Shown: positions 6,137 through 63,402 of the stretch, one piece after another
Numbering within the stretch: the first letter of the stretch is position 1
How the letters are laid out: the number at the start of each line of letters is the position of its first letter
Assembly: GCA_045606425.1 (NCBI GenBank)
Contig: JAZURV010000004.1
Span: 46,353 to 110,352 of the forward strand
Source of the DNA: Candidatus Enterousia sp.
GTDB lineage: Bacteria > Pseudomonadota > Alphaproteobacteria > Rs-D84
Direction of reading: 5' to 3'
DNA: 64,000 nt
Translations under genes and position numbers: made by a program
The notes under the pieces: model-generated
Database searches by the model: none
Told to the model about the DNA's origin: nothing
The model's input: only the letters and a program-made list of their open reading frames with translations

Positions 6137-7564
6137 TTAAATATAATCACAATTTGTTTCTTCTGTATCTTTATTTATCTCTTCTTTACATTTGCATGGC
6201 ATACACTGACTTTCTTCACAATCTGTACAAAGTTCAGAAACAGGGCCATAATCAACTATTACCTTTAACGACGAAAAATCTGTTTGAACCTCAAACCATT
6301 TTATAAAATTATCTATGTTTGATGTTAAATCTATGCATCCCGCAGAACCCGCATAACTTCCCCCATGGATATACATATCTGGTTTACGTCCAAACAAATC
6401 TGTATTTGTGTCTGGGCGCAAAGGAACACGAAACTTTCCCCACGCCCCTCCTTCTTTATCTGCAAGAAGAGAATTATTATTGAAATTACCAACTGTTATA
6501 TTATCCATATATTGAATTTCGTTTTGATAGATATAATATACACCACTTGGTGTTGGGCCAATATGTTCACATGCTTGATATTCAGGTAATTGGCACACAG
6601 TTGGCCTTGAATCCCTTGGTGATTTTCCACGACCAGACACAGCAGGCCAAGATTTTATAACATTACCTTTATAATATACATCGAATTTCTTACCGTCAAA
6701 TTTCGTATAATAATCATTTGACAGTGCTGGCTTATGTTCTTTATCGTAAGAAACGACACAAACGCCACCTTTTTTTACAGAACCATAACCCCATTTTGAT
6801 AACTTTTCATTTAACAAACCACAATCGTTATGTTGGCATTCAAAATCAAAACCATAACCATCATAAATATATTTTCTGACACTTCGATTATCTAAAACGC
6901 CTGCTATTGGTTTAGCAGCCACCGCTTCTGATTTCCCACCATAAATTAAACAAAGCCCACGACCAAAATCTCTTTGTGTATATTGATTTGCATTAGCATT
7001 AGATTCTTTTGCGTCATCAAACTTAAATTCGTAATAAATTGGTTTCAATTTCGATGTACATTTTATGTAATCGTCCTTAACCCCTTCGCGAATATCAGAC
7101 GAACAAACTATTTCATCATTATATTTTTCTCTGGCATACTCTTGTGCCAAATTTTTTGCCTGAGCAAATTGAACTTCTATATCATAAAACACAAATTCTA
7201 TGCAACGCTCATTGTCTTTACCGATTTTGCCCTTGTCTTTACCACAAACTTCATAATATGTATAATTATCATCAGCGGCGCTTACTAATGCGCGTCTGAA
7301 TTCTGCCCGTTTGGCTTTGTCTTTTGTTCTGTCCCATCCTGCGGCATCACATATCTTAGCTATCGATTCCGCACTAACCGTATTTTTTGGATTGTTATTG
7401 TTTAATTCCATATTATACACACTTATCACCTTTTCCCGAACGGTCTTGTCTGGAAAATATTGCCGTAATACACTTAATGCTACATTAGCTGGAATATGTA
7501 TATTCGCATACGAATTTATCGTCATCAAACACATCGAAATTGCACAGAATATTTTCTTTATCAT
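6137..7564 (-). CDS. secreted protein with C-terminal Tlde1/DUF2778-like L,D-transpeptidase-fold toxin domain
   Basis: Signal peptide MIKKIFCAISMCLMTINSYA from the ATG at 7564. C-terminal region: FDGKKF..WPAVSGRG..GPTPSGVYYI..FRVPLRP..GRKPDMYIHGGSYAGSAGCIDL (the H...S.GC catalytic motif of the YkuD-like fold). ATGA overlap with the upstream A-family gene. Confidence 0.7.
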   Translation of the reverse strand: MIKKIFCAISMCLMTINSYANIHIPANVALSVLRQYFPDKTVREKVISVYNMELNNNNPKNTVSAESIAKICDAAGWDRTKDKAKRAEFRRALVSAADDNYTYYEVCGKDKGKIGKDNERCIEFVFYDIEVQFAQAKNLAQEYAREKYNDEIVCSSDIREGVKDDYIKCTSKLKPIYYEFKFDDAKESNANANQYTQRDFGRGLCLIYGGKSEAVAAKPIAGVLDNRSVRKYIYDGYGFDFECQHNDCGLLNEKLSKWGYGSVKKGGVCVVSYDKEHKPALSNDYYTKFDGKKFDVYYKGNVIKSWPAVSGRGKSPRDSRPTVCQLPEYQACEHIGPTPSGVYYIYQNEIQYMDNITVGNFNNNSLLADKEGGAWGKFRVPLRPDTNTDLFGRKPDMYIHGGSYAGSAGCIDLTSNIDNFIKWFEVQTDFSSLKVIVDYGPVSELCTDCEESQCMPCKCKEEINKDTEETNCDYI

Positions 7565-8556
7565 TTCAATACCCCCGTACAACCTGATGATACTTTGGCA
7601 ACTTTCTTTATCGCTGCAATTTGCGTTGCATTAAACACTGTCGCCGCCGCAGACGCTGTCGTTGTGGCGCCCGCCATAACATTTGACGCAATATTTAAAT
7701 TTTTTTCTTTCTTTTTTCCTGAATCCGTATTGTCGTTTCTGACTTTATCACTGTTTGCGATGCTACTTGTTATCGTTCCAACACCACCCAATCCTGCACC
7801 AACAGATGACGATATCATCGCACCACGTCCACGTTTGTTTATTGGGCTGATATCTACATATTCATATTCACGACATGCTTTATATATTTCTTGCGCTTCA
7901 CTGACATCTGTGCCAGCCAATTTGGCGGATAATATCGCATTATTTAAATCTTTGGTCGCAGATATACATGCATCAACCTGACCCTGAATATCGTCTTTGT
8001 TGATTGTGCGACTGGCGATAATCGCACCCGCAACATTAGTCGCTGTATTTCCCGCCAATAATCCTGTGCGCCAATTACCCTGTCTTTTCGATTTCTTATC
8101 CAACTCTTTTATTTCTTCTGTTATATCCTTTGCATGCGCAGTTTCATACTCATCGCATTCTTTCAAAAATGCGACTTTGTCTTCTGCTGTTGCTTCTGGT
8201 CCTTCGTATTCATTAGACAACCTTTCCAATTCTTGTTCCAATTCTTCAATTTTGCTGTCTGTGTTTGCTTTTGCAATCCCTGTTGCTGTTGCGCCAATAC
8301 CCAATCCGGTTCCAACCGCTGTCACCGCAGTATTTATTCCCGCCAAAACCTTTATATCATGTAAATTTTCATCTATATCAACACATGCGCGATATGTGTT
8401 TTGTAATGCAGTGTTTAAATCTAAAACTTCGGCAAAAGATGTGAACGGAATTAAAACCGTTACGAAAAACACCGTTGTTGTCCAATAAAAAACAACCACG
8501 CATCTATACGTACAAAGTCCCAAAGTTTTTACAATTTTTATCCCCTTCTTCACCAC
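7561..8556 (-). CDS. A-family secreted/membrane-associated protein, paralog 2
   Basis: Paralog of 493..1476 and 31955..32905. Exact start uncertain (GTG at 8556 or downstream). Confidence 0.7.
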   Translation of the reverse strand: MVKKGIKIVKTLGLCTYRCVVVFYWTTTVFFVTVLIPFTSFAEVLDLNTALQNTYRACVDIDENLHDIKVLAGINTAVTAVGTGLGIGATATGIAKANTDSKIEELEQELERLSNEYEGPEATAEDKVAFLKECDEYETAHAKDITEEIKELDKKSKRQGNWRTGLLAGNTATNVAGAIIASRTINKDDIQGQVDACISATKDLNNAILSAKLAGTDVSEAQEIYKACREYEYVDISPINKRGRGAMISSSVGAGLGGVGTITSSIANSDKVRNDNTDSGKKKEKNLNIASNVMAGATTTASAAATVFNATQIAAIKKVAKVSSGCTGVLK

Positions 8557-8712: not shown

Positions 8713-9195
8713 TTAGTCACCAGACGGATTATTAAAAGTCCAACCGACAAATATTTTCCCGTTTATGTGTTGCGCTTTCCGTGGTGTGCGGATATCACCA
8801 CCGTATGTCACACTGCCCGCGTCGTTTGCGTCAATATCAGATTGGTCTGCATGGTCCCAATTTATCGTTATGGTATTCGGTTCATAAACAGCAACCAAAC
8901 CCATCGGAAAATTAGCGGCACACGAATTATTCATGGTGGCGTCCGAAAAAGAATCGAAAATTACCCCCTGAAAATTATCTGGATTAAAATCAAATGTTCC
9001 GCCGGGGCACGTTCCGCCGGTCGGACACGCGACACAAGTGACAGCATTCGCAGGTAAAAATTGTCCACTTGCGCAAGTATAAGAATTTGGTTCATACACC
9101 GCATAATAATCAGGAACATCTGTATCACACATCATATCTGCAAACACAGATTGCGTTATAATTACCGCCGATAAAAACACATAAATTTTTTTCAT
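8713..9195 (-). CDS. Cys-rich secreted protein with conserved C-terminal B-repeat (Listeria/Bacteroides repeat-like) domain
   Basis: Signal peptide MKKIYVFLSAVIITQSVFA, CxxC-rich middle, and C-terminus ITINW..DIDANDAGSVTYGGDIRTPRKA.H..GK.FVGWTFN shared with three other genes. Confidence 0.75.
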   Translation of the reverse strand: MKKIYVFLSAVIITQSVFADMMCDTDVPDYYAVYEPNSYTCASGQFLPANAVTCVACPTGGTCPGGTFDFNPDNFQGVIFDSFSDATMNNSCAANFPMGLVAVYEPNTITINWDHADQSDIDANDAGSVTYGGDIRTPRKAQHINGKIFVGWTFNNPSGD

Positions 9196-9977
9196 TGTAA
9201 ATCGCCAATCTCTGGTCCCGCAACAAATGTACCTGTACCGGCGTTCGTGAAGAACTGACCAGATACAGTGTCATACATACCAACGACATTGTCGAACTGA
9301 CGGCGCGCCGGAATACCATTAAATACCAATGTACCAGACGAATTTCTTATCCAAACACTATACATCTGTGCAGAAACTTTTTGAATTGCGGAAACATTAC
9401 TATTATTCGCAAACAAATATAATTTCAGTCGATTATCACTAATACCACTTTGTTGAGTAAAGGTTTTTGTAACACCATCTATATTTAGCGTAACATTGTT
9501 ATTATTATCAACTATTGTATGGATTGTGTGTTTGACGTTATTAGCAACCTCCCCCAGATTTGAATAACTGCTAGATGTTGAATTATAAAAGCTTAATACG
9601 CCAGAGCCATAATAATAATAAGTTTGACGCAAATTATAACTAGCACTAGTATCTTGACACCCCATTAATGACACATCATTTGCACCGTTTGTTTTTTTAA
9701 AATTTATAAACACTTCGCTTGCCAGTTTATCCAATATGACGCCCGTATCGATATACTGTGTACCTGTACTTTCAATGTATTCCAGTTTGGTGTAGCCTGA
9801 TTCCCATCTGACAAAATGATAGCCTGTTTTTGCTGGGGCGGTTGGCGGAGTTATATTGTCACCAGATTGACAACTGGTTGTTGATACAACCTGTCCGTTC
9901 GCATACCAATTTATCGTGTGTGCAATTGCGCCGGCACATATAAACATCGCAAATAAAAACATCAAGATTTTTTTCAT
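9192..9977 (-). CDS. secreted protein: N-terminal B-repeat domain plus conserved ~190-aa C-terminal domain (LEYIESTGTQYIDTG ... GMYDTVSGQFFTNAGTGTF)
   Basis: Paralog of 44619..45410. Has the GYHFVRW B-repeat signature. ATGA overlap with the downstream gene. Confidence 0.7.
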   Translation of the reverse strand: MKKILMFLFAMFICAGAIAHTINWYANGQVVSTTSCQSGDNITPPTAPAKTGYHFVRWESGYTKLEYIESTGTQYIDTGVILDKLASEVFINFKKTNGANDVSLMGCQDTSASYNLRQTYYYYGSGVLSFYNSTSSSYSNLGEVANNVKHTIHTIVDNNNNVTLNIDGVTKTFTQQSGISDNRLKLYLFANNSNVSAIQKVSAQMYSVWIRNSSGTLVFNGIPARRQFDNVVGMYDTVSGQFFTNAGTGTFVAGPEIGDLQ

Positions 9978-10001
9978 TTCTTCCCCTATTTCAAATTATC
10001 A

Positions 10002-10180
10002 AAAAACCACCGGAAAAATTCAGGCGGTTGGAGGCTCAAAACAATTCAAATAGGAAATTGCGTGCTTATTTATGTATATCGCAACCCTCCAACCTAGGTT
10101 GGAGAACTTTTCGCTCTGGTCTTTCAGAACGCCTATTTGTTCTGGGTTTTGAGTCCCATCGACAAAACTCTTGCCGACAT
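10002..10180 (-). promoter_or_regulatory. structured 5' leader RNA L1 with intrinsic terminator (family of four)
   Basis: -10 TAAAAT at 10185-10190. Covarying helices are shared with L2-L4. Terminator AACCGCC-loop-GGTGGTT-T6 lies 24 nt before the ATG at 9977. Confidence 0.7.
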
Positions 10181-10267
10181 AGACATTTTATCAAACATAT
10201 AAAAATAATGAAAGAAAAAAAATTTTTAAACAAACACCACCCAATCTGGTGGCATATTTCATAAAAC

Positions 10268-10369: not shown

Positions 10370-11968
10370 TTAGTTCAGTGGGGCGCCCCAATGCTGTTGA
10401 ATACTGCGTTCTGCGTCCATCGGGCTGACCAAAACTTGCGGTGTCAAGATAACAACCAAAACTTCACGCGATGCGGCGGTTTCGCGCGAACCAGACAATG
10501 CCATAAAGTCTGCGTCGCCAAGGCCATATCTGGTATCATCATTCTTTTGTTTTTCAAACCCAGACACAACTAACATTTGACCAGATTCCATGATGACTTC
10601 CTGCATGAATGAACGTTCTTCAACCTCTGGCAATTGCAGTGTGACTGCACCAATTGTTTGTGTTGACATTTTCAACAATTCGCGCACAGACATTTTGAAC
10701 AACAGCAATATTTTCCCGTTTTCCAAAACATTTGGCAATAATTGCATTGAAAAACCTGTTTCCAAATCGTCTTGGTCAACCGTACTGGATTCAACAGTTG
10801 TAAATGTACGCGATTCGAATCGTTTGATGTAACCTGTTGATTTTGTGTTTGTCACAGGTGCGACACGATTATTACGCGTCGTGACGCCAACATTTGTGAC
10901 CAACGATACCTTGCCCTGCTTTGCCAATGCCTCTATCAGCGCATTGGACCCCGCCAGACGCGACATAGACCCGTTACGAATTTGGTCTTCGGTATATGTG
11001 CCGGCAATCCCTGTTGCCGCTTCGGCTACCTTGTTAGACAACACTGCGATATTCATTGACGAAGCCTCTGTCGATGCCAAATTGTTCTTTGGGTTTGCAA
11101 CAATGTTCAACCCAGACGCAGAATTTATCGCTGCCGCCAGATTCAACCCGAACGCCGATTCGTTTGACAAAGACACCTGTAATACCTTCACATCTATCGT
11201 CACCAATTGTGACAATCTTTTGTTTTGTTTTGTGATATATTCGCCAACACGATTCAGTACAGATGGCGACGCAGTCACAGTAATTGTCCCCAAACTGCGT
11301 GACACTGTAAATTGAGCATTCTTAGAATTATTTATAATAGAATTTATGGTTGCTTCGACTTCGTCCCATTCTTTCAGTGTAGATTCCAACGAAACCTGGT
11401 TTCCTGAATCAGTTTGCACAGACGACTGATACGACACATCTGTCCCCAGCGCATATAATGTATAAGTACGCGTTTCTGTTTCATAGAAAACAATTGAATC
11501 TTTGTCATAATACCACAACAAATCCAAATCTGTCGCAATTTGTGACAGCAATCCCGACAATTTACCAGTATATGCAACATCAACTGTCTTTCTTAATTTT
11601 TCAGCATCGACCTGGCTGTCGATTTTCACAGGGATACCAGTTATTGAATTTATATCGTTCGCCAACACCTGCAAAGTGACTGGTTCGTTTAACAAAATAG
11701 TCACCCCCGTATCGGTTTCGAATTTTGATGGCAAATTATTTTTGTGTTCCAACAAAGTGGATTTGTTTCCCAACCAAACACCTTCGGACATGGAAACAGT
11801 GTCACTGCTGGTGACCTTGGCCGGTGGATTCTTTGCCATTTCGAATGCTTCGTATGCATTGACAAAGTTTTTATCAACCGTTGCAGACACCTTGGCTGAT
11901 TCTTTCAATGTGCACCCAGTCAGTGCAACAATCAAGCCTATTAAACAGATATTAAAACGAATTTTCAT
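10370..11968 (-). CDS. secretin-family outer-membrane lipoprotein, PilN (type IVb pilus / R64)-like
   Basis: Lipobox LIVALTGC. C-terminal secretin domain: LLPNVLENGKILL..LPEVEERSFMQEVIMESGQMLVVSGF..REVLVVILTPQVL. Confidence 0.7.
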   Translation of the reverse strand: MKIRFNICLIGLIVALTGCTLKESAKVSATVDKNFVNAYEAFEMAKNPPAKVTSSDTVSMSEGVWLGNKSTLLEHKNNLPSKFETDTGVTILLNEPVTLQVLANDINSITGIPVKIDSQVDAEKLRKTVDVAYTGKLSGLLSQIATDLDLLWYYDKDSIVFYETETRTYTLYALGTDVSYQSSVQTDSGNQVSLESTLKEWDEVEATINSIINNSKNAQFTVSRSLGTITVTASPSVLNRVGEYITKQNKRLSQLVTIDVKVLQVSLSNESAFGLNLAAAINSASGLNIVANPKNNLASTEASSMNIAVLSNKVAEAATGIAGTYTEDQIRNGSMSRLAGSNALIEALAKQGKVSLVTNVGVTTRNNRVAPVTNTKSTGYIKRFESRTFTTVESSTVDQDDLETGFSMQLLPNVLENGKILLLFKMSVRELLKMSTQTIGAVTLQLPEVEERSFMQEVIMESGQMLVVSGFEKQKNDDTRYGLGDADFMALSGSRETAASREVLVVILTPQVLVSPMDAERSIQQHWGAPLN

Positions 11969-11998: not shown

Positions 11999-12886
11999 TT
12001 ATTCTTCTGTGGTTGAAACAACCAAAACACGATTTCCCTTGTAAAACTTTGCATACGGGACAGGTGTTGCGCGTCCAAAATTGCGCACCAATGCCGACGC
12101 CACATCAACAAAGCGTCCCTTGAATACCGCGCTGGCCTCTATTGGATATTCACGCGAAGTTGTCCACACTAAATCCCAACCTTCTTTGTCACACCAAGAC
12201 TGCAAAACCTGACGCAAAGTTTGACCGTTTGCAACAACCCACGAACGAACCTGGTCTTGAACCTTTGCCCCGGCTTCTTCATCAGTGTATTCGTTTACTG
12301 CAACCTCTGTATCCGCGGCATCAGATTTATTGCATGACGCTTCGGCACTGAACCCAGCCTTTTGCGCGAACATGGCATAATCATCTGCGCCCTGATTACA
12401 ATTTTTACGACCACTGCGCGACATAGCCAGAACACTGCCACCATCATCTTCCATCATTTCACGGCGCATCAGTGGCATTTCCGCGTTATTTGCACATTCA
12501 TAATCAAAACCAGCAGGAATCTGAATGCCATTAGAAATGTTTGGACCACCACTCCAACCCGTGCCATTTGTGATAATATTATTTTCAATACGCAACCCAT
12601 TACCAGTTTTTGCAACAACCATCGCATCGTTTTTCTTGCAGCCTAATTCGCCGCACGCGATTTCAACATCAGCGTCAGTCCCCGCCAATGGCCACACAGG
12701 AACATCCTGTTGTACAACTGTGTTTTCTTCGTATTCGTATTCTGGGGATTCGATTTCTTCTGTATATTCTTCTTCGCCAGAATCATAAAAAACCTCAGAA
12801 GTTGTAATCTGTGGAATTCTTTGTGCAGCCCCAGCAACGCCAACCAGGCCTGCAACCGCCATAAACACGCATAATTTGTGGAACAT
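11999..12886 (-). CDS. TcpQ/PilL-like domain protein (secretin-associated)
   Basis: Signal peptide. C-terminal region W.VANGQTLRQVLQSWCDKEGWDLVW...FKGRFVDVASALVRNF...AKFYKGNRVLVV resembles the TcpQ domain. Confidence 0.6.
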   Translation of the reverse strand: MFHKLCVFMAVAGLVGVAGAAQRIPQITTSEVFYDSGEEEYTEEIESPEYEYEENTVVQQDVPVWPLAGTDADVEIACGELGCKKNDAMVVAKTGNGLRIENNIITNGTGWSGGPNISNGIQIPAGFDYECANNAEMPLMRREMMEDDGGSVLAMSRSGRKNCNQGADDYAMFAQKAGFSAEASCNKSDAADTEVAVNEYTDEEAGAKVQDQVRSWVVANGQTLRQVLQSWCDKEGWDLVWTTSREYPIEASAVFKGRFVDVASALVRNFGRATPVPYAKFYKGNRVLVVSTTEE

Positions 12887-20629: not shown

Positions 20630-20705
20630 TGGTGGCCAGAAGAGGAATCGAACCTCTGACACAGGGATTTTCAGTCCCTTGCTCTACCAACTGAGCTATC
20701 TGGCC
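20630..20705 (-). tRNA. tRNA-Phe (GAA), CCA encoded
   Basis: Hand-folded cloverleaf: acceptor GGCCAGA/TCTGGCC, anticodon stem AGGGA/TCCCT with loop CTGAAAA, T-arm AGAGG-TTCGATT-CCTCT. Confidence 0.9.
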
Positions 20706-29283: not shown

Positions 29284-29359
29284 TGGTGGACGCACAGGGA
29301 CTCGAACCCTGGACCCACTGATTAAGAGTCAGTTGCTCTACCAACTGAGCTATGCATCC
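29284..29359 (-). tRNA. tRNA-Lys (CTT), CCA encoded
   Basis: Hand-folded: acceptor GGATGCA/TGCGTCC, anticodon loop CTCTTAA, T-arm CAGGG-TTCGAGT-CCCTG. Confidence 0.9.
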
Positions 29360-43427: not shown

Positions 43428-43447
43428 TGCGGATTACAGAAAGCAAG

Positions 43448-43547
43448 TTCCCCTCCTGCGGAGGGGTGGTCTTTTGTTGTCAAGGTTGTTCGTTTTTTTT
43501 CAACCCTCCCCGCCACTTCGTGGTCCCCCCGCCCCGGGCGGGGAATA
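43448..43547. repeat. GC-rich palindromic MITE-like element, copy A
   Basis: Left arm TTCCCCTCC-tgc-GGAGGGG; right arm CCCTCCCCGCC...CCCCGCCCC-ggg-CGGGGAAT. Confidence 0.6.
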
Positions 43548-43644
43548 CAAGCAAGGTTTCGGAAACAAAGTACACCGAAACCGTTGCGGTATACGCCAGA
43601 GCGCAAGCGCATGGCGAATTTTGCACCGTTCTTGGCACAGTCTA

Positions 43645-43868
43645 AATTCCCCTCCCACGGAGGGGTGGATTGGCGGAACGCAGTGACGACAAGACGGGGA
43701 GGGGTCAAATAAAAATTTATTATTGAATTCATTTTTTTTCATAAATAAGATGTAAAACAAGATATGTCTAATATTTTGATATGGATAAAGCGAAATATAG
43801 ATTTAATAAACTGAATTTAATTTGACCCCTCCCCGCCCTGCGGGCCCTCCCCTCCGGCGGAGGGGAAT
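43645..43868. repeat. GC-rich palindromic MITE-like element, copy B (long AT-rich centre)
   Basis: AATTCCCCTCC-cac-GGAGGGG ... GGGGAGGGGTCAAAT, an AT-rich centre of ~110 nt, then ATTTGACCCCTCCCCGCC...CCCCTCC-ggc-GGAGGGGAAT. Confidence 0.7.
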
Positions 43869-43944
43869 CTGCGATGTTCCTAAGACGACCTAAAAAAAAA
43901 GAACCCGGCAAGGGGTTCTTTTTTTTATGGAACACACACACATA

Positions 43945-44619
43945 TTATTGTGGTGTATTGAATGTCCAACCGGTAAAGATTTTACCTGGTTTGTGGACTG
44001 CTTTCCGTGGCGTTCTGATATCACCACCGTATGTGACAGAACCGGCGTCGTTTGCCGCGATATCTTCCGCAGACGCGTCCGCCCATGTGATGCTGATAGT
44101 ATTCGCAGTGCACGACGACGAACCAGCAGTCGACGAATACCCCGTTGCACAGGGTTCGATTCCTTGATCAATTGTTTCATTAAAAGTATATGTTCCACCA
44201 GAACAAATATTATTTGCTGGACAAATTGTGCACACATCAACCCCCGCTGGTAAATAATATCCGGCAGAGCAAGTATGCGAATTTGGTTCAAAAATCGCAA
44301 TTATTTCGTGTGGCGCATTTGCAGCACAGGTATTGGTTAAATTATTTACAAATAAGTTTGGATTGTTTAAGCCCTGATTTTCGTTTTTTTTGAAATTAAA
44401 GACTCCTCCTGTGCAACTATAATCAATCGGACATGTACGACATCCAAGGGTATTTGCCGGTAAAAATTCACCAGAAAAACACTCGTATTGGTTTGGTGTA
44501 AACACAGCAACAAACATATCTTCTTCAGGACCGCCACATGAATTTGGTATTGGTTCGGTATAATACGTGAAAGCATTCAAAGAACACCAAGCAATAAAGA
44601 TGACAAATATTTTTTTCAT
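43945..44619 (-). CDS. Cys-rich secreted protein with conserved C-terminal B-repeat domain
   Basis: Signal peptide; repeated C..G.Y/F..C..CP motifs; C-terminus ISITW..DIAANDAGSVTYGGDIRTPRKAVHKPGKIFTGWTFN. Confidence 0.75.
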   Translation of the reverse strand: MKKIFVIFIAWCSLNAFTYYTEPIPNSCGGPEEDMFVAVFTPNQYECFSGEFLPANTLGCRTCPIDYSCTGGVFNFKKNENQGLNNPNLFVNNLTNTCAANAPHEIIAIFEPNSHTCSAGYYLPAGVDVCTICPANNICSGGTYTFNETIDQGIEPCATGYSSTAGSSSCTANTISITWADASAEDIAANDAGSVTYGGDIRTPRKAVHKPGKIFTGWTFNTPQ

Positions 44620-45410
44620 TATTCAACCTCGGGCCCAGCAATAAAATTACCTGTTCCTGAATTTGTGAAAAATATTTTTGTGACAGTATCATACATACCA
44701 ACAGTATTGTTTTTTATTGCTGGTATTAAATTGTGTGAAAGATTTTCCCCATCCCAAATCTGACAATAATATATTCGACCACGAAAAGGGAATTCCATTC
44801 TTCCACTGGTATTACGTGCAAATAAAAACAAAGTATAATTGGCGAACCATTCTCCATTTGTAGGGAAAGTCCAAGTATGAATATCTTTTATAGACACCAC
44901 ATTTTTATTATAATATAGCTCGTATTTTATTCTTGTTGTATCGCCTTCTGAAATAGTAGTGACTGTTCCGCTTTCGTTTCCTCCAAAACCGATACGATTT
45001 GGCACCAACAAACGTACCAGTCCATTTTTTGAATTACTTGCGTCCCCATAGTCAGCACAACCCAAAACTGCCATATTTTGGTTAATTGTGTCTGTTCTCA
45101 TATAAGCAATTTTTACAGACGTATCTTTGTTAGGAAAATAACCAGTATCGATATATTGTATTCCTGTGGCTTCTATATATTCAAGAGGCGTATAACTTTT
45201 TTCACGCCATCCCTGAAATGTATACCCGTATTTTGTTGGTGCTAATGGTAAATTTATATCACCGCCTGTTTGGCAAGTTGTTGTGTTGTATACGCTGCCA
45301 TCAACATACCATTTTATCGTTTCTGTATCGGCGTATAATGCGGTTGTAAACAGCAACGACAATAATAACACTAATAATTTTTTCATCTCTCTTTCCTTTC
45401 GTTTGTTCAT
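44619..45410 (-). CDS. secreted protein: N-terminal B-repeat plus conserved C-terminal domain (paralog of 9192..9977)
   Basis: GYTFQGW; LEYIEATGIQYIDTG ... GMYDTVTKIFFTNSGTGNF. TAATG overlap with the downstream gene. Confidence 0.7.
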   Translation of the reverse strand: MNKRKEREMKKLLVLLLSLLFTTALYADTETIKWYVDGSVYNTTTCQTGGDINLPLAPTKYGYTFQGWREKSYTPLEYIEATGIQYIDTGYFPNKDTSVKIAYMRTDTINQNMAVLGCADYGDASNSKNGLVRLLVPNRIGFGGNESGTVTTISEGDTTRIKYELYYNKNVVSIKDIHTWTFPTNGEWFANYTLFLFARNTSGRMEFPFRGRIYYCQIWDGENLSHNLIPAIKNNTVGMYDTVTKIFFTNSGTGNFIAGPEVE

Positions 45411-45426
45411 TTGCCCATCGCAGACT

Positions 45427-45567
45427 AATTCCCCTCCACGGGAGGGGTACGGCGCCAGCCGTGGGGAGGAGTCAAATTAAATAAATATAATTATAAAAAA
45501 ATTACAATTATATTTATCGGTCCCCTCCCCGCCACGTTGTGGCCCTCCCCTCCGTCGGAGGGGAATT
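45427..45567. repeat. GC-rich palindromic MITE-like element, copy C
   Basis: AATTCCCCTCC-acg-GGAGGGG ... GGGGAGGAGTCAAATT, an AT-rich centre, then GGTCCCCTCCCCGCC...CCCCTCC-gtc-GGAGGGGAATT. It sits between leader L2 and its gene. Confidence 0.7.
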
Positions 45568-45584: not shown

Positions 45585-45780
45585 AAACATCAAAATACCG
45601 CATTTGAAAATCAAAGGCGGTTGGAGGTTAACGACAATTTAGACTGAAAATTGTGCGCTTATTCATATATATCAGCGCCCTCCAACCTATATTCAAGTTG
45701 GAGATTCTTTCACGTCCATATACACAATGGACAACAGTCTAAACGGGTCGTTACACCCATCAGGAAAACACTTCCTGACG
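45585..45780 (-). promoter_or_regulatory. structured 5' leader RNA L2 (family of four)
   Basis: -10 TAAAAT at 45786-45791. Same helices as L1 and L3 with compensatory changes. Variant terminator ACCGC-loop-GCGGT plus a U-rich tail. Confidence 0.65.
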
Positions 45781-45792
45781 AAATTATTTTAA

Positions 45793-45826
45793 CAAAAAAC
45801 ACTGGCAATCGCCAGTGCTTTTTTTA
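45793..45826 (-). terminator. tatA intrinsic terminator
   Basis: CACTGGC-gatt-GCCAGTG plus T-run on the minus strand. Confidence 0.7.
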
Positions 45827-55508: not shown

Positions 55509-55524
55509 ATCCGATAAACACCAC

Positions 55525-55551
55525 AAAAACCGCCGTATACGGCGGTTTTTA
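55525..55551. terminator. bidirectional intrinsic terminator
   Basis: AACCGCC-gtatac-GGCGGTT flanked by A- and T-runs. Confidence 0.75.
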
Positions 55552-55568
55552 TTACAGTAAAAAACAAA

Positions 55569-56321
55569 CTAATTATTCGGTGTGTTAAATGTCCAACCCG
55601 TAAAAACTTTGCCCGGTATATGTATTGCCGATTTTGGCGTTCTGATATCACCACCGTATGTGACAGAACCTGCGTCATTTGCCGCGATATCGCTTTGTTC
55701 TGTATTATCCCAATTTATCTGGATTGTGTTCCCGGTACATTCTGATGCACCATCGTTTGACCAATATCCTTCTGGGCATGCTTCGATACCAAAAGTCGTT
55801 GTATGAACGACCGACTGGTTGCTGGAATTACAAATAACCCCTGATTTCCCGGGACAATACGAACCCGCCGTACATACATTTATTTGGTTGTAATATGCAT
55901 ACGTACCACACGCCGTTCTGCCGCGTAAATAATAACCAGGTTCCACAGCATACCAATATGTCAACCATGTCCTGTCATATTCTTGAGTGACAGTGTTATA
56001 ATAAGCATAATCTACCAGCATCCCCCGCCTGTCTTTTAGATGACAAGAAATTCTGCAAGATTTTATACTATTTTTTCCGTTAGAATAACCATGACAACCT
56101 ATTATTCCTGTGACATCATAAATATCTGGAAATGTTGTCCGAATGTGTCCTTCAACAGATGGGCAATCGTATGCGATATCATCACCCGGGCAATATTTAA
56201 AATCCGGGCATTGTTTACACAAACCGTTATCATTATAATATTCTGCATCACACACGGCGGCAAATGCGCCATTGTTGAATATCCCCAACAAACAAAATAT
56301 TGCGAAAAACACCCGTCGCAT
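55569..56321 (-). CDS. Cys-rich secreted protein with conserved C-terminal B-repeat domain
   Basis: Signal peptide; many Cys (CKQCPDFKYCPG, CTAGSYCPG); C-terminus IQINW..DIAANDAGSVTYGGDIRTPKSAIHIPGKVFTGWTFN. Confidence 0.75.
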   Translation of the reverse strand: MRRVFFAIFCLLGIFNNGAFAAVCDAEYYNDNGLCKQCPDFKYCPGDDIAYDCPSVEGHIRTTFPDIYDVTGIIGCHGYSNGKNSIKSCRISCHLKDRRGMLVDYAYYNTVTQEYDRTWLTYWYAVEPGYYLRGRTACGTYAYYNQINVCTAGSYCPGKSGVICNSSNQSVVHTTTFGIEACPEGYWSNDGASECTGNTIQINWDNTEQSDIAANDAGSVTYGGDIRTPKSAIHIPGKVFTGWTFNTPNN

Positions 56322-56339
56322 AAAATCCCCCTTTTGAAC

Positions 56340-56515
56340 AAAAAACCACCGGAAAAATTCAGGCGGTTGGAGGCTAGTAACAATTCAGTACGAAATTGTG
56401 TGCTTATTTATATATATCGCAGCCCTCCAACCTGCTTTGGTTGGAGTTTTTTACGTCACATGGACGCGTACCGAAACGGGCTACTAGACCCCATCGGCAA
56501 AACCCTTGCCGACCT
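56340..56515 (-). promoter_or_regulatory. structured 5' leader RNA L3 (family of four)
   Basis: Promoter TTGTCA, 17-nt spacer, TAAAAT (-10 at 56520-56525). Helices as described in the findings. Terminator AACCGCC-loop-GGTGGTT-T6 lies 18 nt before the RBS and ATG. Confidence 0.7.
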
Positions 56516-56571
56516 TTGTATTTTATCAAAACAAATGTATTATGACAATAAAAAAACGGCGATTGCCGTTT

Positions 56572-60679: not shown

Positions 60680-62017
60680 ATGGAAAAAGTCATGAAAAAC
60701 ATAGTTATTGTTGGCCGTCCCAATACTGGCAAATCGACACTTTTTAATGCGCTGACAAATTCGCGCGACGCACTGGTTCATGACAGACCTGGCGTCACGC
60801 GCGACACAATATCTGGACGCATTCCAAACCGCCCATGGACATTGTATGATACTGCGGGTCTGGAAAATGTAAAATCTGGTATTGCACACGATTCAACTGA
60901 CATGGCGATAAAGGCCATTGAAAACGCAGATGCGATTTTATTCGTTGTTGATGGTCGCGTTGGATTAAACCCTATGGATTTAGAATGGGCAAAACTGGTA
61001 CACAAAAAAACACGGGCACCCGGAATTTTATTGGTAAACAAAAGCGAATCGGCAAAACGATTATCTGATATTCATGATTTTTACAAACTGGGATTTGGCG
61101 AACCACAACTGATATCCGCAGAACACAAACGCGGATTTGATGTGATTTATAATTTAATGGATTCGCTGTATACGACAGAATCCGCCGTATACGACGATTC
61201 AAATAAAGAAATTAAAATCGCAGTTTTGGGTCAGCCAAATGTTGGAAAATCTACATTTGTAAATCGCGTACTGGGCGAACAACGGCAAATCGTCATGGAC
61301 GCCCCAGGCATAACACGCGACACAGTAAAAATACCAACGCGATTTTACGGTCGCGACATTGTTATAATGGACACTGCGGGTCTGCGTCGCAAAGCGGGGG
61401 TAACGGACGATGTCGAAACATTATCTGCGTTAAAATCATTGGACGCCATTGAAAAATCAGACATTGTTATTTTAATTGTGGACGCAACCAAAAACATCGA
61501 AAACCAGGCACTGGGCATTGCATCGCGCGTATATGACGCAGGAAAAATATTATGTGTCGCCCTTAACAAATGGGATTTGGTTGACGAAGCAGAAAGGGAT
61601 GAAAAATTATTAAAATTGAAACATCAGTTTACTAATTCTTTCCATCAAATTATAAAGCCGTTGATTTTGGCAATATCTGCCGAAAAAGGTACAGGCGTAC
61701 AAAATTTATTTAAACGCATTTACGAACAATGGGACATATCGAATACAGACGCCCCAACCAGTTTGATAAACCGCATAGTTGAAAAACTGGTCGCTGAACG
61801 GCAACCGCCTATGTCGCGCCTGAAACGCCCAATGAAAATAAAATTCGCGCGTCAGACCGGACATCATCCGATTCGCATCACAATAAATGTTGGCGGGGCA
61901 TCTGATATACCTGAATCTTATACACGATACCTGCGCCGCGGGATTGCAACGGCATTAAAGATGGAACATTTGCCGATTACAATTGAATACCAAAAATCCG
62001 AAAATCCATTTGACTAA
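60680..62017 (+). CDS. der: ribosome-associated GTPase Der/EngA
   Basis: Two G domains (GRPNTGKST and GQPNVGKST) plus a KH-like C-terminus. Confidence 0.95.
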   Translation: MEKVMKNIVIVGRPNTGKSTLFNALTNSRDALVHDRPGVTRDTISGRIPNRPWTLYDTAGLENVKSGIAHDSTDMAIKAIENADAILFVVDGRVGLNPMDLEWAKLVHKKTRAPGILLVNKSESAKRLSDIHDFYKLGFGEPQLISAEHKRGFDVIYNLMDSLYTTESAVYDDSNKEIKIAVLGQPNVGKSTFVNRVLGEQRQIVMDAPGITRDTVKIPTRFYGRDIVIMDTAGLRRKAGVTDDVETLSALKSLDAIEKSDIVILIVDATKNIENQALGIASRVYDAGKILCVALNKWDLVDEAERDEKLLKLKHQFTNSFHQIIKPLILAISAEKGTGVQNLFKRIYEQWDISNTDAPTSLINRIVEKLVAERQPPMSRLKRPMKIKFARQTGHHPIRITINVGGASDIPESYTRYLRRGIATALKMEHLPITIEYQKSENPFD

Positions 62018-62042
62018 AAAACCGCCTATACGGCGGTTTTTC
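62018..62042. terminator. bidirectional intrinsic terminator
   Basis: AACCGCC-tatac-GGCGGTT flanked by A- and T-runs. Confidence 0.75.
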
Positions 62043-62048
62043 TGTTGT

Positions 62049-63095
62049 TTACTGATTTGGTGTATTGAATGTCCAACCGGTGAAGACTTTACCAGCCTTA
62101 TGCACGGCTTTGCGTGGTGTTCTGATATCACCACCGTATGTGACAGAACCCGCATCATTCGCGTCAATATCAGATTGGTCTGCATCCGCCCAAGTAATCG
62201 CAATTGTGTTGGCTTGGCAGGATGGTGCCCCAGCAGGAATCGCATTGAACACCGCAGCACGCCAATCGGGGTTTTCCACACCCATGTAATCCCGAAGGTA
62301 GTCCGCACAGATGTCCGGGCAGTATTCTGCGCAACTACTCGAGGAGCTGTAGCGATTAAAAAACACCCAGGGAGCAGATACGTTCTGGCTGACGCCATTA
62401 TCATCTGGCAAGCCAGTATCCGGTGTATAACTATCAATTTGACACCAACAATTCGAACCGTTCGTAAAGTCCGCGGTCACAGTATTCGATGTGTCACCCC
62501 TAGAAGCTGCACTGCCTTGTGTACTACATACTGCTTTACCTGTTATACGACCTTTCTCAGAAAAATCTATACCAAAGGTATCCGTTGCAGTTATTCCGTA
62601 TCTTGTTTGGCTTGTTGAACCTGCACCGTTATGATATGTGCCACTGTGGTCTATGTATCCGTATGCGGTGCCCTGGCTGTTTCCGATTATGCTTGCAAAA
62701 TCTGGGTTGCCTGGGTTAAGTGTATACCCCGTATCACAGGTTGCGATGGCGCAGGTGTCGGTTTCATTTGCACCCTGATAATTTTTACCAGTTACACTTG
62801 CGATATGGGAATTTGCCGGAAAGTCAGATACTGTACAGGCTTTATAACACTGGTCGGTACTTGTTGCACCATCATCACTGTTTGGAAATCCGGTCGGACA
62901 GTCCGTATAACTTGCACTTGTTGTTGCTGTTCCGCTTGATACTTTCAAATTCGTAACATTTGCCTGACCAACATAAGTATAGTCTTCCGCCATTACCCCG
63001 TTACTGGGAAATGAATTTGAACTGTGTGATGGTTCTGCGATTGCTGGCACTGCAACCAATGCCAATATTGTTCCAAAACTAAATATTTTGTTCAT
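62049..63095 (-). CDS. large Cys-rich secreted protein with conserved C-terminal B-repeat domain
   Basis: Signal peptide; Cys-rich variable body; C-terminus IAITW..DIDANDAGSVTYGGDIRTPRKAVHKAGKVFTGWTFN. Confidence 0.75.
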   Translation of the reverse strand: MNKIFSFGTILALVAVPAIAEPSHSSNSFPSNGVMAEDYTYVGQANVTNLKVSSGTATTSASYTDCPTGFPNSDDGATSTDQCYKACTVSDFPANSHIASVTGKNYQGANETDTCAIATCDTGYTLNPGNPDFASIIGNSQGTAYGYIDHSGTYHNGAGSTSQTRYGITATDTFGIDFSEKGRITGKAVCSTQGSAASRGDTSNTVTADFTNGSNCWCQIDSYTPDTGLPDDNGVSQNVSAPWVFFNRYSSSSSCAEYCPDICADYLRDYMGVENPDWRAAVFNAIPAGAPSCQANTIAITWADADQSDIDANDAGSVTYGGDIRTPRKAVHKAGKVFTGWTFNTPNQ

Positions 63096-63119
63096 AGGTT
63101 ATCCCCCTTTCTTTGCTTT

Positions 63120-63332
63120 AAAAAACCACCAAAAGAAACTGGTGGTCGGGGAGTTCAAAAATCAGATTATCATCGATCCCGTTGCCTTTAGATATACGCT
63201 AACGGCTCCCCAACCTTGTTATGTCAGGGACAATAACGGTGCAAAAACACCGATAATAACACAAGATACGATGCCTTCGCACCGGATAATCTGGGCTTTT
63301 GACGACCCCGAACCCAATTCCCATTGGATTCA
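63120..63332 (-). promoter_or_regulatory. structured 5' leader RNA L4 (divergent family member)
   Basis: Promoter TTTACA, 17-nt spacer, TATAAT (-10 at 63338-63343). Same architecture as L1-L3 with different primary sequence. Terminator CCACCA-loop-TGGTGG-T6. Confidence 0.6.
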
Positions 63333-63402
63333 GGACAATTATAACAGTTTCATAAAAAAATGTAAATATATAATAATTAAAACCGCCGTAACGGCGGTTT
63401 TG

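Follow-up and report, generated by a model that had tools for sequence, protein, structure and literature searches.

The 64,000-nt stretch of Candidatus Enterousia sp. DNA analysed here, hereafter called the window, contains four minus-strand genes, L1 to L4, and two further genes, N1 and N2, which directly precede L1 and L2. Together the six genes probably belong to one lineage-specific superfamily of Sec-exported, disulfide-rich modular proteins, encoded as self-contained, leader-driven cassettes which are replaced or rewritten between strains. All four open reading frames (ORFs) picked out in an earlier reading made from the letters of this DNA (the sequence-only reading) were found on the minus strand at the coordinates listed below, encoding proteins of 160, 224, 250 and 348 amino acids (aa). 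L1 and L2 had been taken for stand-alone genes, but are the second genes of two-gene operons, in which their starts overlap the stops of their paralogous upstream partners N1 and N2, respectively.

8713-9195 (minus strand): L1, 160-aa predicted secreted protein with one Cys-rich unit; module at residues 107-155 (nt 8731-8877)
9192-9977 (minus strand): N1, 261 aa, paralog of N2 (37% identity) and first gene of the N1-L1 operon
43945-44619 (minus strand): L2, 224-aa predicted secreted protein with two Cys-rich units; module at residues 173-221 (nt 43957-44103)
44619-45410 (minus strand): N2, 263-aa predicted secreted protein; canonical B-repeat at the N-terminus, plus an uncharacterised domain; heads the N2-L2 operon
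55569-56321 (minus strand): L3, 250-aa predicted secreted Cys-rich protein; module at residues 198-246 (nt 55584-55730)
62049-63095 (minus strand): L4, 348-aa predicted secreted protein with signal peptide (1-20), conserved N-domain (~21-128), variable alpha/beta centre (~129-290) and module (296-344)
62226-62711 (minus strand): hypervariable central region of L4, residues 129-290
62064-62210 (minus strand): C-terminal module of L4, putative divergent Flg_new/B-repeat

Each of L1 to L4 starts with a lysine/arginine-rich segment followed by a hydrophobic segment and an AxA-like site, which reads as a Sec-type signal. Residues ~70-260 of N1 and N2 form a domain with the motif LEYIE(S/A)TG(T/I)QYIDTG, which recurs downstream of many copies of the leader RNA described below (loci L012, L042, L050 and L088) and for which neither Pfam, NCBIfam nor PHROG gave an assignment. 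A reading of N1 and N2 as phage tail fibres was dropped, because the PHROGs showed no phage relationship.

A shared module resembling B-repeats

All of L1 to L4 are closed by the pattern NTI.I.W....DI.ANDAGSVTYGGDIRTP..A.H..GK.F.GWTFN, with 36-42 of the 49 residues identical in pairwise comparisons, and tblastn found exactly four copies of this module in the window. The 18-mer GATATCACCACCGTATGT occurs four times, with 0.04 occurrences expected. Both the common end module of about 50 aa and the 18-mer identical in all four genes had been noticed in the sequence-only reading, and both held up. The resemblance to a Listeria/Bacteroides B-repeat, which was suggested at the same time, is supported by a chain of profile matches and not by a direct Pfam match at threshold: the Flg_new family (PF09479) is matched by eight of 32 L2-type family members (best E 1.4e-6), whereas the modules of L1 to L4 score below the 27-bit gathering threshold or do not match. 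Some family members have at the same position a canonical-type repeat, NTITINWDGA--ESGTCTYGGTITTPTTPPTRRGYTFVGWTF, which does match PF09479. Comparison by hhalign of a profile of the ANDAG-type modules with the canonical-type set gave a probability of 99.3% (E 7e-21), and the canonical set, which includes the repeats of N1 and N2, matched the InlB B-repeat (2Y5P) at E 7.7e-7, with N2 alone reaching E 5e-4 against the same repeat. In the AlphaFold2 (AF2) models of L2 and L4 the module consists of a strand, a helix and further strands, with a predicted local distance difference test score (pLDDT) of 64-88. Judged from these profiles, the module is a putative divergent Flg_new B-repeat with an inserted, near-invariant DI.AN(D/N)AG segment which is predicted to be helical.

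The position of the module varies within the family. In N1 and N2 it is found at the N-terminus, and in the P0044-type proteins of 288-315 aa it occupies residues ~118-181. It is therefore not a strictly terminal sorting signal, and the C-terminal sorting signal offered as an alternative in the sequence-only reading is not supported. The mid-protein placement was seen in the L4-like proteins P0044, P0045, P0047, P0052, P0054, P0057 and P0060, and indicates domain shuffling within the family. Among the matches listed, a BLASTP match to the module was absent in 35 of 120 homologs.

Cysteine-rich bodies and the L4 subfamily

The bodies upstream of the module had been described as largely unrelated, but L1 to L3 share one Cys-rich unit, with 48% identity between L1 and L2 over 138 aa and 56% between L2 and L3 over ~108 aa, and it is the body of L4 alone that differs. 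The unit has the pattern AVFEPN.Y.C..G.(F/Y)LPA....C..CP....C.GG.F.F....QG, and L2 corresponds to L1 with this unit duplicated. The domain of unknown function DUF7631 (PF24634) was matched by 22 of 32 L2-type homologs at E <= 0.01 (best 1.6e-6), and by L1 with 18.6 bits, under the 27-bit threshold. The Cys motifs do recall ephrin-receptor-type repeats, albeit weakly: L2-type members gave weak matches to Ephrin_rec_like, NCD3G and TNFR_c6, whereas L1 to L4 themselves had no match to PF07699 (Ephrin_rec_like/GCC2_GCC3) at E <= 1, a family which was matched by one of the 32 homologs at 0.004 and by four of 90 leader-linked proteins (up to 2.9e-6). The likeness to Giardia variant-specific surface proteins, which are rich in CXXC motifs and are anchored by a C-terminal transmembrane segment with the conserved tail CRGKA, was not borne out, as there are only one or two CxxC motifs per unit, no C-terminal hydrophobic segment is present and the proteins end in GWTFN-x-P. 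Structural and sequence searches gave little more: Foldseek searches of the Protein Data Bank (PDB) had nothing at E <= 0.001 for L2 or L4, and for the L2 model (pLDDT 77) returned only the cysteine-rich domains of TNFR, CaSR and Elapor1, all non-significant (E >= 0.26). The L2-type profile had no match among the PDB sequences, and the NCBIfam matches were limited to fragments of Cys-rich radical-SAM/SPASM families, which are spurious.

With a profile search 262 homologs were obtained, none with a functional name. Full-length homologs were found elsewhere for L2 (~55% identical), L3 (orthologs at 93, 76 and 71%) and L4 (50-71%), and the bodies are therefore stable lineages rather than scrambled sequence. 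The best match of L1, at 49%, is to a longer L2-type protein, and L1 resembles a shortened version of such a protein. An exhaustive profile search with the Cys-unit family gave 1193 representative clusters at E <= 1e-3, 124 of them at E <= 1e-30. A protein-based scan of species-representative GTDB genomes gave only two loci, one in a Candidatus Enterousia metagenome-assembled genome (MAG; L001) and one in a sheep-ileum alphaproteobacterial MAG. Giant proteins of 2000-4300 aa (P0121, P0129, P0147, P0229 and others) contain 11-25 stretches matching the Cys-unit profile; by analogy, such long arrays would be typical of extracellular adhesin-like proteins.

The AF2 model of L4 has a pLDDT of 75 overall and of 80-97 in the alpha/beta centre, and Foldseek found no PDB fold matching L4. 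Distant orthologs of L4 have one Cys unit near the N-terminus. Members of the L4-type subfamily have mean identities of 0.83, 0.49 and 0.85 over the N-domain, centre and module, respectively, and the same distribution is seen between P0018 and P0022, apparently encoded on one contig (0.98, 0.60 and 0.95, respectively).

A structured leader RNA upstream of the cassettes

The sequence-only reading had also claimed a conserved 5' leader, with identical runs in L1 and L3. The signal-peptide regions of the four genes have no nucleotide similarity, and the leader is instead located in the 5' untranslated region (UTR), where the copies of N1 and L3 share a 37-nt identical run, and where the regions upstream of N1, N2, L3 and homologs in other contigs align well. 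The four copies in the window, with the covariance-model scores of type 1 in bits, are:

9997-10182 (minus strand): type-1 leader of the N1-L1 operon, 187.8 bits, fold z-score -5.2; extended -10 box TGATAAAAT at 10185-10193
45588-45783 (minus strand): type-1 leader of the N2-L2 operon, 174.5 bits; extended -10 box TGTTAAAAT at 45786-45794
56336-56517 (minus strand): type-1 leader of L3, 201.7 bits, z-score -4.5; extended -10 box TGATAAAAT at 56520-56528; terminator just before the ribosome binding site (RBS)
63118-63335 (minus strand): type-2 divergent leader of L4, minimum free energy z-score -7.0; terminator hairpin and U-run; extended -10 box TGTTATAAT at 63338-63346

The leader is ~180 nt long and has a constant order, with the extended -10 box followed by a hairpin (P1), a multi-helix core, and CCUCCAACCGCC, which leads into an intrinsic terminator located ~15-25 nt upstream of the RBS. 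The core contains an invariant CUCCAACC-loop-GGUUGGAGGG element and a conserved loop, GAAUAUAUUGAAUAA, and there are two pseudoknots, one between the P2 loop and the 3' strand and one between the joining strand and the P6 loop, both of which covary. Covariation is also seen in the helices P2 (positions 57:77 are GC in 59, AU in 25 and GU in 14) and P6 (314:335 are AU in 62 and UA in 33). Over the alignment 89-91% of cells are paired, with compensatory changes in 34-37 pairs (34 of 39 in the first fold). Double-change cells number 800-850 versus 237-270 in shuffled alignments (237 +/- 14 for the 800), a level reached in none of 500 shuffles, and the covariation score is 0.43-0.48 versus at most 0.07 with the partners slid, the slid controls being 6-7 times lower. 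These results were obtained with a covariance model built from four leader sequences, which replaced RNAalifold on a MAFFT alignment; applied to 37 truncated leaders, the latter recovered nothing but the invariant antiterminator helix, as the variable helices had been misaligned by MAFFT. A nested GGGG:CCUC pairing and a 'helix 3' in the first consensus were dropped, and the local helices P2 and P6, which covary, were adopted instead.

Two partners of comparable energy are available to the segment GGUUGGAGG, namely CUCCAACC upstream of it (-13.5 kcal/mol) and CCUCCAACC close to the terminator (-16.8 kcal/mol). In a few leader variants, as well as in the type-2 leaders, all three segments are changed together. 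With these alternative pairings and the terminator, the leader is organised like a transcription attenuator or riboswitch. The type-2 leader of L4 is related to leaders in contigs L004 and L002, and in our reading of its sequence would keep the same pairings as type 1.

The covariance model found the three full copies and a local match in the L4 leader within the window, and 110 matches in the collected loci, while an exact-pattern scan of metagenome contigs gave at least 120 leader matches; more than 110 leader copies are found in gut metagenomes, with an aligned -10 box upstream. A same-strand ORF starts within ~20-260 nt of 108 of 122 leader copies, and mostly encodes a protein with a signal peptide. 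Among 90 downstream genes scanned, 26 encode Flg_new, four Ephrin_rec_like, and at least ten an XRE-type helix-turn-helix (HTH) domain. When the whole window was searched against Rfam 15 (4227 families) only two tRNAs reached the gathering score, and at permissive E-values all Rfam 15 matches to the leader regions had E >= 0.048, far below gathering. The literature searched on Rs-D84, riboswitches, DUF7631 and the motif itself gave nothing relevant. As far as Rfam 15 and this literature go, the leader is apparently an RNA motif which had not been described and whose functional kind is known, and it appears to be confined to one uncultured lineage.

Small XRE-type HTH genes (47-118 aa) follow the leader in loci L006, L009, L017, L019, L032, L033, L036, L041 and L045, and further leader-XRE combinations occur in L065-L067, L074, L081, L083, L095 and L097. 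The sequences of these leaders, which apparently lack the variable P3 hairpin and have a distinct P1, suggest that they may be a subclass of the motif. Similar to what is described below for N2, G+C-rich insertions between leader and ORF yield spurious ORFs in several metagenome loci.

Cassette replacement between strains

We compared the window with contig L004, which is 95.7% identical over 5.6 kb and 97.3% identical beyond, and in which the Der, DUF2659, BamB and LpoB proteins are 98.2, 96.8, 95.9 and 98.4% identical to those of the window, respectively. The gene in the L4 slot of this contig is only 58% identical to L4 overall, and this is unevenly distributed: identity is 93-97% in the N-domain and 89-97% in the module, versus 10-55%, with indels, in the centre. 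The change in the L3 slot is more drastic, as the entire unit from BamB to the L3 terminator has been swapped for P0019, an L4-like 342-aa gene which brings its own L4-type upstream region, while the L3 terminator, at the edge of the replaced segment, is 100% identical over 27 nt. The comparison of strains called for in the sequence-only reading thus showed both a rewritten L4 centre and a replaced L3 unit. Misassembly of L004 was set aside as the source of this arrangement, since it would need identical repeats of at least 141 nt at both junctions, and no identical run between the paralogs is longer than 37 nt. In the more distant loci L084, L044, L071, L053 and L089, the slots beside LpoB, DksA and SPOR hold a leader-driven gene with other cargo, and L001-L003, which are also more distant genomes, do not have the der-L4-hlyIII gene order.

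The variation and the cassette replacement between strains are real, and as cargo is replaced or rewritten between strains and species with the flanks kept, it is in the population that the variation arises, with homologous recombination or gene replacement as the most likely route. The sequence-only reading had proposed recombination-driven variation of surface cassettes; its conserved flanks around a variable middle are supported, and whole-gene replacement between close strains can be added, whereas programmed switching within one genome, weighed below, found no support. A diversity-generating retroelement acting on the L4 centre was set aside, as the differences are indels and wholesale replacement and not point changes; no reverse transcriptase turned up among the ~30 window ORFs scanned, a scan which was not a formal test aimed at retroelements.

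Terminators, repeats and neighbouring genes

According to the sequence-only reading each of the four genes abuts a housekeeping terminator. Terminator hairpins are indeed present just downstream of L1, L3 and L4, that of L4 being shared with der, whereas there is none directly downstream of L2, where the nearest minus-strand match is at 43450-43466. Enterousia and the order Rs-D84 comprise Alphaproteobacteria of the gut which have not been cultured, have genomes smaller than 1 Mb and are thought to be partner-dependent (PMC12306168). The G+C content of the window, 39.5%, and its housekeeping genes (BamB, LpoB, Der, SufB and a secretin) both fit a diderm of this kind. The other features bearing on the cassettes are:

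62017-62041 (bidirectional): terminator hairpin common to L4 and the convergent der gene
55523-55552 (minus strand): L3 terminator hairpin, the right boundary of the segment replaced in L004
10370-12886 (minus strand): secretin gene (10370-11968; Pfam Secretin E 6e-13) and TcpQ-like gene (11999-12886; Pfam TcpQ E 8e-18)

The secretin and TcpQ-like genes belong to the type IVb pilus or type II secretion family, and lie directly upstream of N1-L1 on the same strand. Near-identical hairpins, AAAACCGCCGTA.ACGGCGGTTTT, at 55523-55552, 62017-62041 and 63379-63401 bound the L3 and L4 cassettes. The N2-L2 operon is flanked on both sides, at 43444-43887 and 45425-45567, by G+C-rich palindromes (CCCCTCC-N4-GGAGGGG, CCCTCCCCGCC...), one block of which lies between the leader terminator and the start of N2. 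By their sequence these palindromes look like an element of the repetitive extragenic palindrome (REP) or miniature inverted-repeat transposable element (MITE) type of this lineage.

Interpretation and alternative explanations

In the interpretation that we favour, each protein would join a variable part to the conserved divergent B-repeat of about 50 aa, the variable part being one or two DUF7631/ephrin-receptor-like units in L1 to L3, and the N-domain with the hypervariable centre in L4. The B-repeat may be a shared handle by which the proteins are docked, assembled or exported, with the variable part as an interaction surface under diversifying pressure. Each gene or operon would be an autonomous cassette between housekeeping genes, consisting of promoter, leader, terminator and ORF or ORFs, with a downstream hairpin for L1, L3 and L4, and its leader would attenuate transcription in response to one signal. 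The proteins would fold with disulfides in the periplasm and then be displayed or released, for which the TcpQ-like/secretin pair upstream of N1-L1 is a possible export route. Turnover of the cargo could proceed by homologous recombination through the flanking genes, and possibly also through the shared leader, module and terminator. Going further, it is possible, and we propose it only tentatively, that the leader is a new riboswitch class, or the target of a new RNA-binding antiterminator, through which one signal controls by transcription attenuation the whole repertoire of interchangeable surface proteins with B-repeats and Cys-rich parts, together with small XRE regulators, in the uncultured Alphaproteobacteria of the gut with reduced genomes (Rs-D84). 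Such a regulon would serve interaction with a host or partner cell, and its members would be exchanged between strains as leader-ORF-terminator cassettes.

Several observations weigh against this interpretation. With regard to localisation, a Sec signal alone would in a diderm be expected to lead to the periplasm, and a secretin gene adjoins just one locus out of the four. With regard to the module, that of L2 scores 14.5 bits against PF09479 (E 0.041), below the gathering threshold, and the Pfam scan gave no PF09479 match for L1, L3 or L4; the module profile alone had only chance matches among the PDB sequences, InlB not being among them, and whole-protein Foldseek searches with L2 and L4 found neither a B-repeat nor any other significant match. 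With regard to the leader, a hairpin followed by a U-run was present in only 68 of 115 expression platforms under a strict test, the match of the type-1 model to the L4 leader is no more than local (63183-63229), and the family gene in the Enterousia MAG (L001) lacks a leader in a covariance-model scan. The metagenome leader copies were gathered by an exact pattern in which two segments were fixed, and the conservation of these two anchor segments is therefore partly imposed. Finally, the close-strain comparison consists of one 8.1-kb metagenome contig from the European Nucleotide Archive (ENA), L004, plus more distant loci, and the L4 allele of this contig is cut by the contig end.

The replacement seen between strains could also be the outcome of programmed antigenic variation, in which paralogs swap segments by gene conversion with leader and module as anchors, and single cells switch bodies. 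The modules of L2, L3 and L4 have an identical core of 32-36 nt which exceeds the codon-bias expectation (P < 0.001), at one Gly codon of the module the four window copies all have GGT while both L004 copies have GGC, a small hint of concerted evolution, the ends of P0018 and P0022 are near-identical around a 60% identical centre, and a paralog of L4 occupies the L3 slot of the sister strain, all of which would fit such a system. For most pairs of the four paralogs, however, the sharing of identical codons at conserved module residues exceeds what codon bias predicts by a modest amount only (P 0.03-0.18), and the synonymous sites are near saturation. As the same core codons recur in distant genomes, the shared core is mostly due to shared constraint, and recent gene conversion as the source of the 18-mer was largely rejected on the same grounds. 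Moreover, every copy or operon carries its own extended -10 promoter, leader and RBS, and none is thus a silent cassette, among the ~30 window ORFs scanned none was identified as a recombinase, and the full-length orthologs of L2, L3 and L4 elsewhere mark the bodies as stable lineages, which together make programmed switching unlikely. We attach a similarly low probability to an ordinary paralogous periplasmic or envelope family, in which the module is a structural domain and the strain differences reflect relaxed constraint and gene turnover in a fast-evolving, reduced genome. That L1 to L4 have a Sec signal only, with no anchor motif, lipobox or beta-barrel to be read off their sequences, and that no function was assigned by Pfam, NCBIfam or PHROG, is in line with such a family, but flanks of 96-98% next to a centre of 10-55% within one gene are not what uniform fast evolution would produce. 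The dedicated regulation through a common structured leader, the long Cys-unit arrays of the 1000-4000-aa proteins, such as are typically seen in adhesin-like proteins outside the cell, and the nature of the module argue in the same direction, B-repeats being known from surface proteins such as InlB (PF09479).

A further explanation sees the module chiefly as an export or sorting determinant for a secretin-based machine (type II secretion or type IVb pilus), and not as a docking domain. Sec-exported proteins with periplasmic disulfides are classic substrates of secretin systems, the TcpQ-like and secretin genes lie next to N1-L1, and the module is the sole part common to all members. We nevertheless regard this as very unlikely, given the N-terminal module in N1 and N2 and its mid-protein position in P0044-type relatives, the single locus out of four near a secretin, and the homologous folded domain in Gram-positive surface proteins which do not use a secretin.

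Comparison with known systems

The modules share with the InlB B-repeat (PF09479; 2Y5P) the pattern h-x-h-x-W/F ... Y-G-G ... T-P ... G-x-x-F-x-G-W, but differ in carrying the DI-x-AN(D/N)AG insert, in falling below Pfam gathering, in being present once per protein and not in arrays, and in coming from what is presumably a diderm alphaproteobacterium. Similarly, the Cys-rich units have the C-x-x-G-(F/Y)-(F/Y)-L-P ... C-x-x-C-P ... C-x-G-G arrangement, as a unit of ~50 aa, in common with the ephrin-receptor/GCC2_GCC3 (PF07699), TNFR (PF00020) and DUF7631 families, while L1 to L4 are bacterial, have no PF07699 match and fold matches only at E >= 0.26, and each unit opens with the beta-strand motif AVFEPN. 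The protein family is a variant of B-repeats and ephrin/TNFR-like Cys repeats in an unstudied lineage.

With regard to genomic organisation, a variable middle within conserved flanks and the replacement of units at fixed slots are also features of capsule and O-antigen loci and of pilin and adhesin alleles. In contrast to Neisseria pilE/pilS and Borrelia vlsE, there is no single expression site with promoterless silent donors, as all copies look expressible, the evidence for variation is between strains and not within a clone, and no dedicated machinery was seen among the ~30 ORFs scanned. The leader resembles riboswitches and attenuators, such as the c-di-GMP riboswitches before adhesin and pilus genes, in being a 5' UTR behind a promoter with a covarying pseudoknotted fold, in having a terminator before the RBS with a competing antiterminator, and in preceding many unlinked genes of related function. 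It differs from known riboswitches in matching no Rfam 15 family and in its unusual regulon of Flg_new/Cys-rich secreted proteins and small XRE-type regulators.

The host and cell interactions of Rs-D84/Enterousia-type bacteria are little known, and the loci described here provide a concrete candidate repertoire for them, of predicted secreted, disulfide-rich proteins whose handle is shared and whose faces vary between strains, at fixed chromosomal slots. Orphan leaders as well supported as this one are seldom found and can be tested directly, and the signal of the leader, once found, would show what these organisms sense when deploying their putative surface proteins. The replacement at strain level is also a warning that MAGs assembled from short reads will break or be mis-binned at exactly such loci.

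Other features of the window

Just downstream of L1, at 7561-8556 (minus strand), is a 331-aa ORF which is Ala/Gly/Thr-rich, has a hydrophobic N-terminal segment and no Pfam match, and of which a homolog with 39% identity is found in locus L056. The two tRNA genes mentioned above, at 20633-20705 and 29287-29359 (minus strand), are the sole Rfam matches at gathering score in the window.

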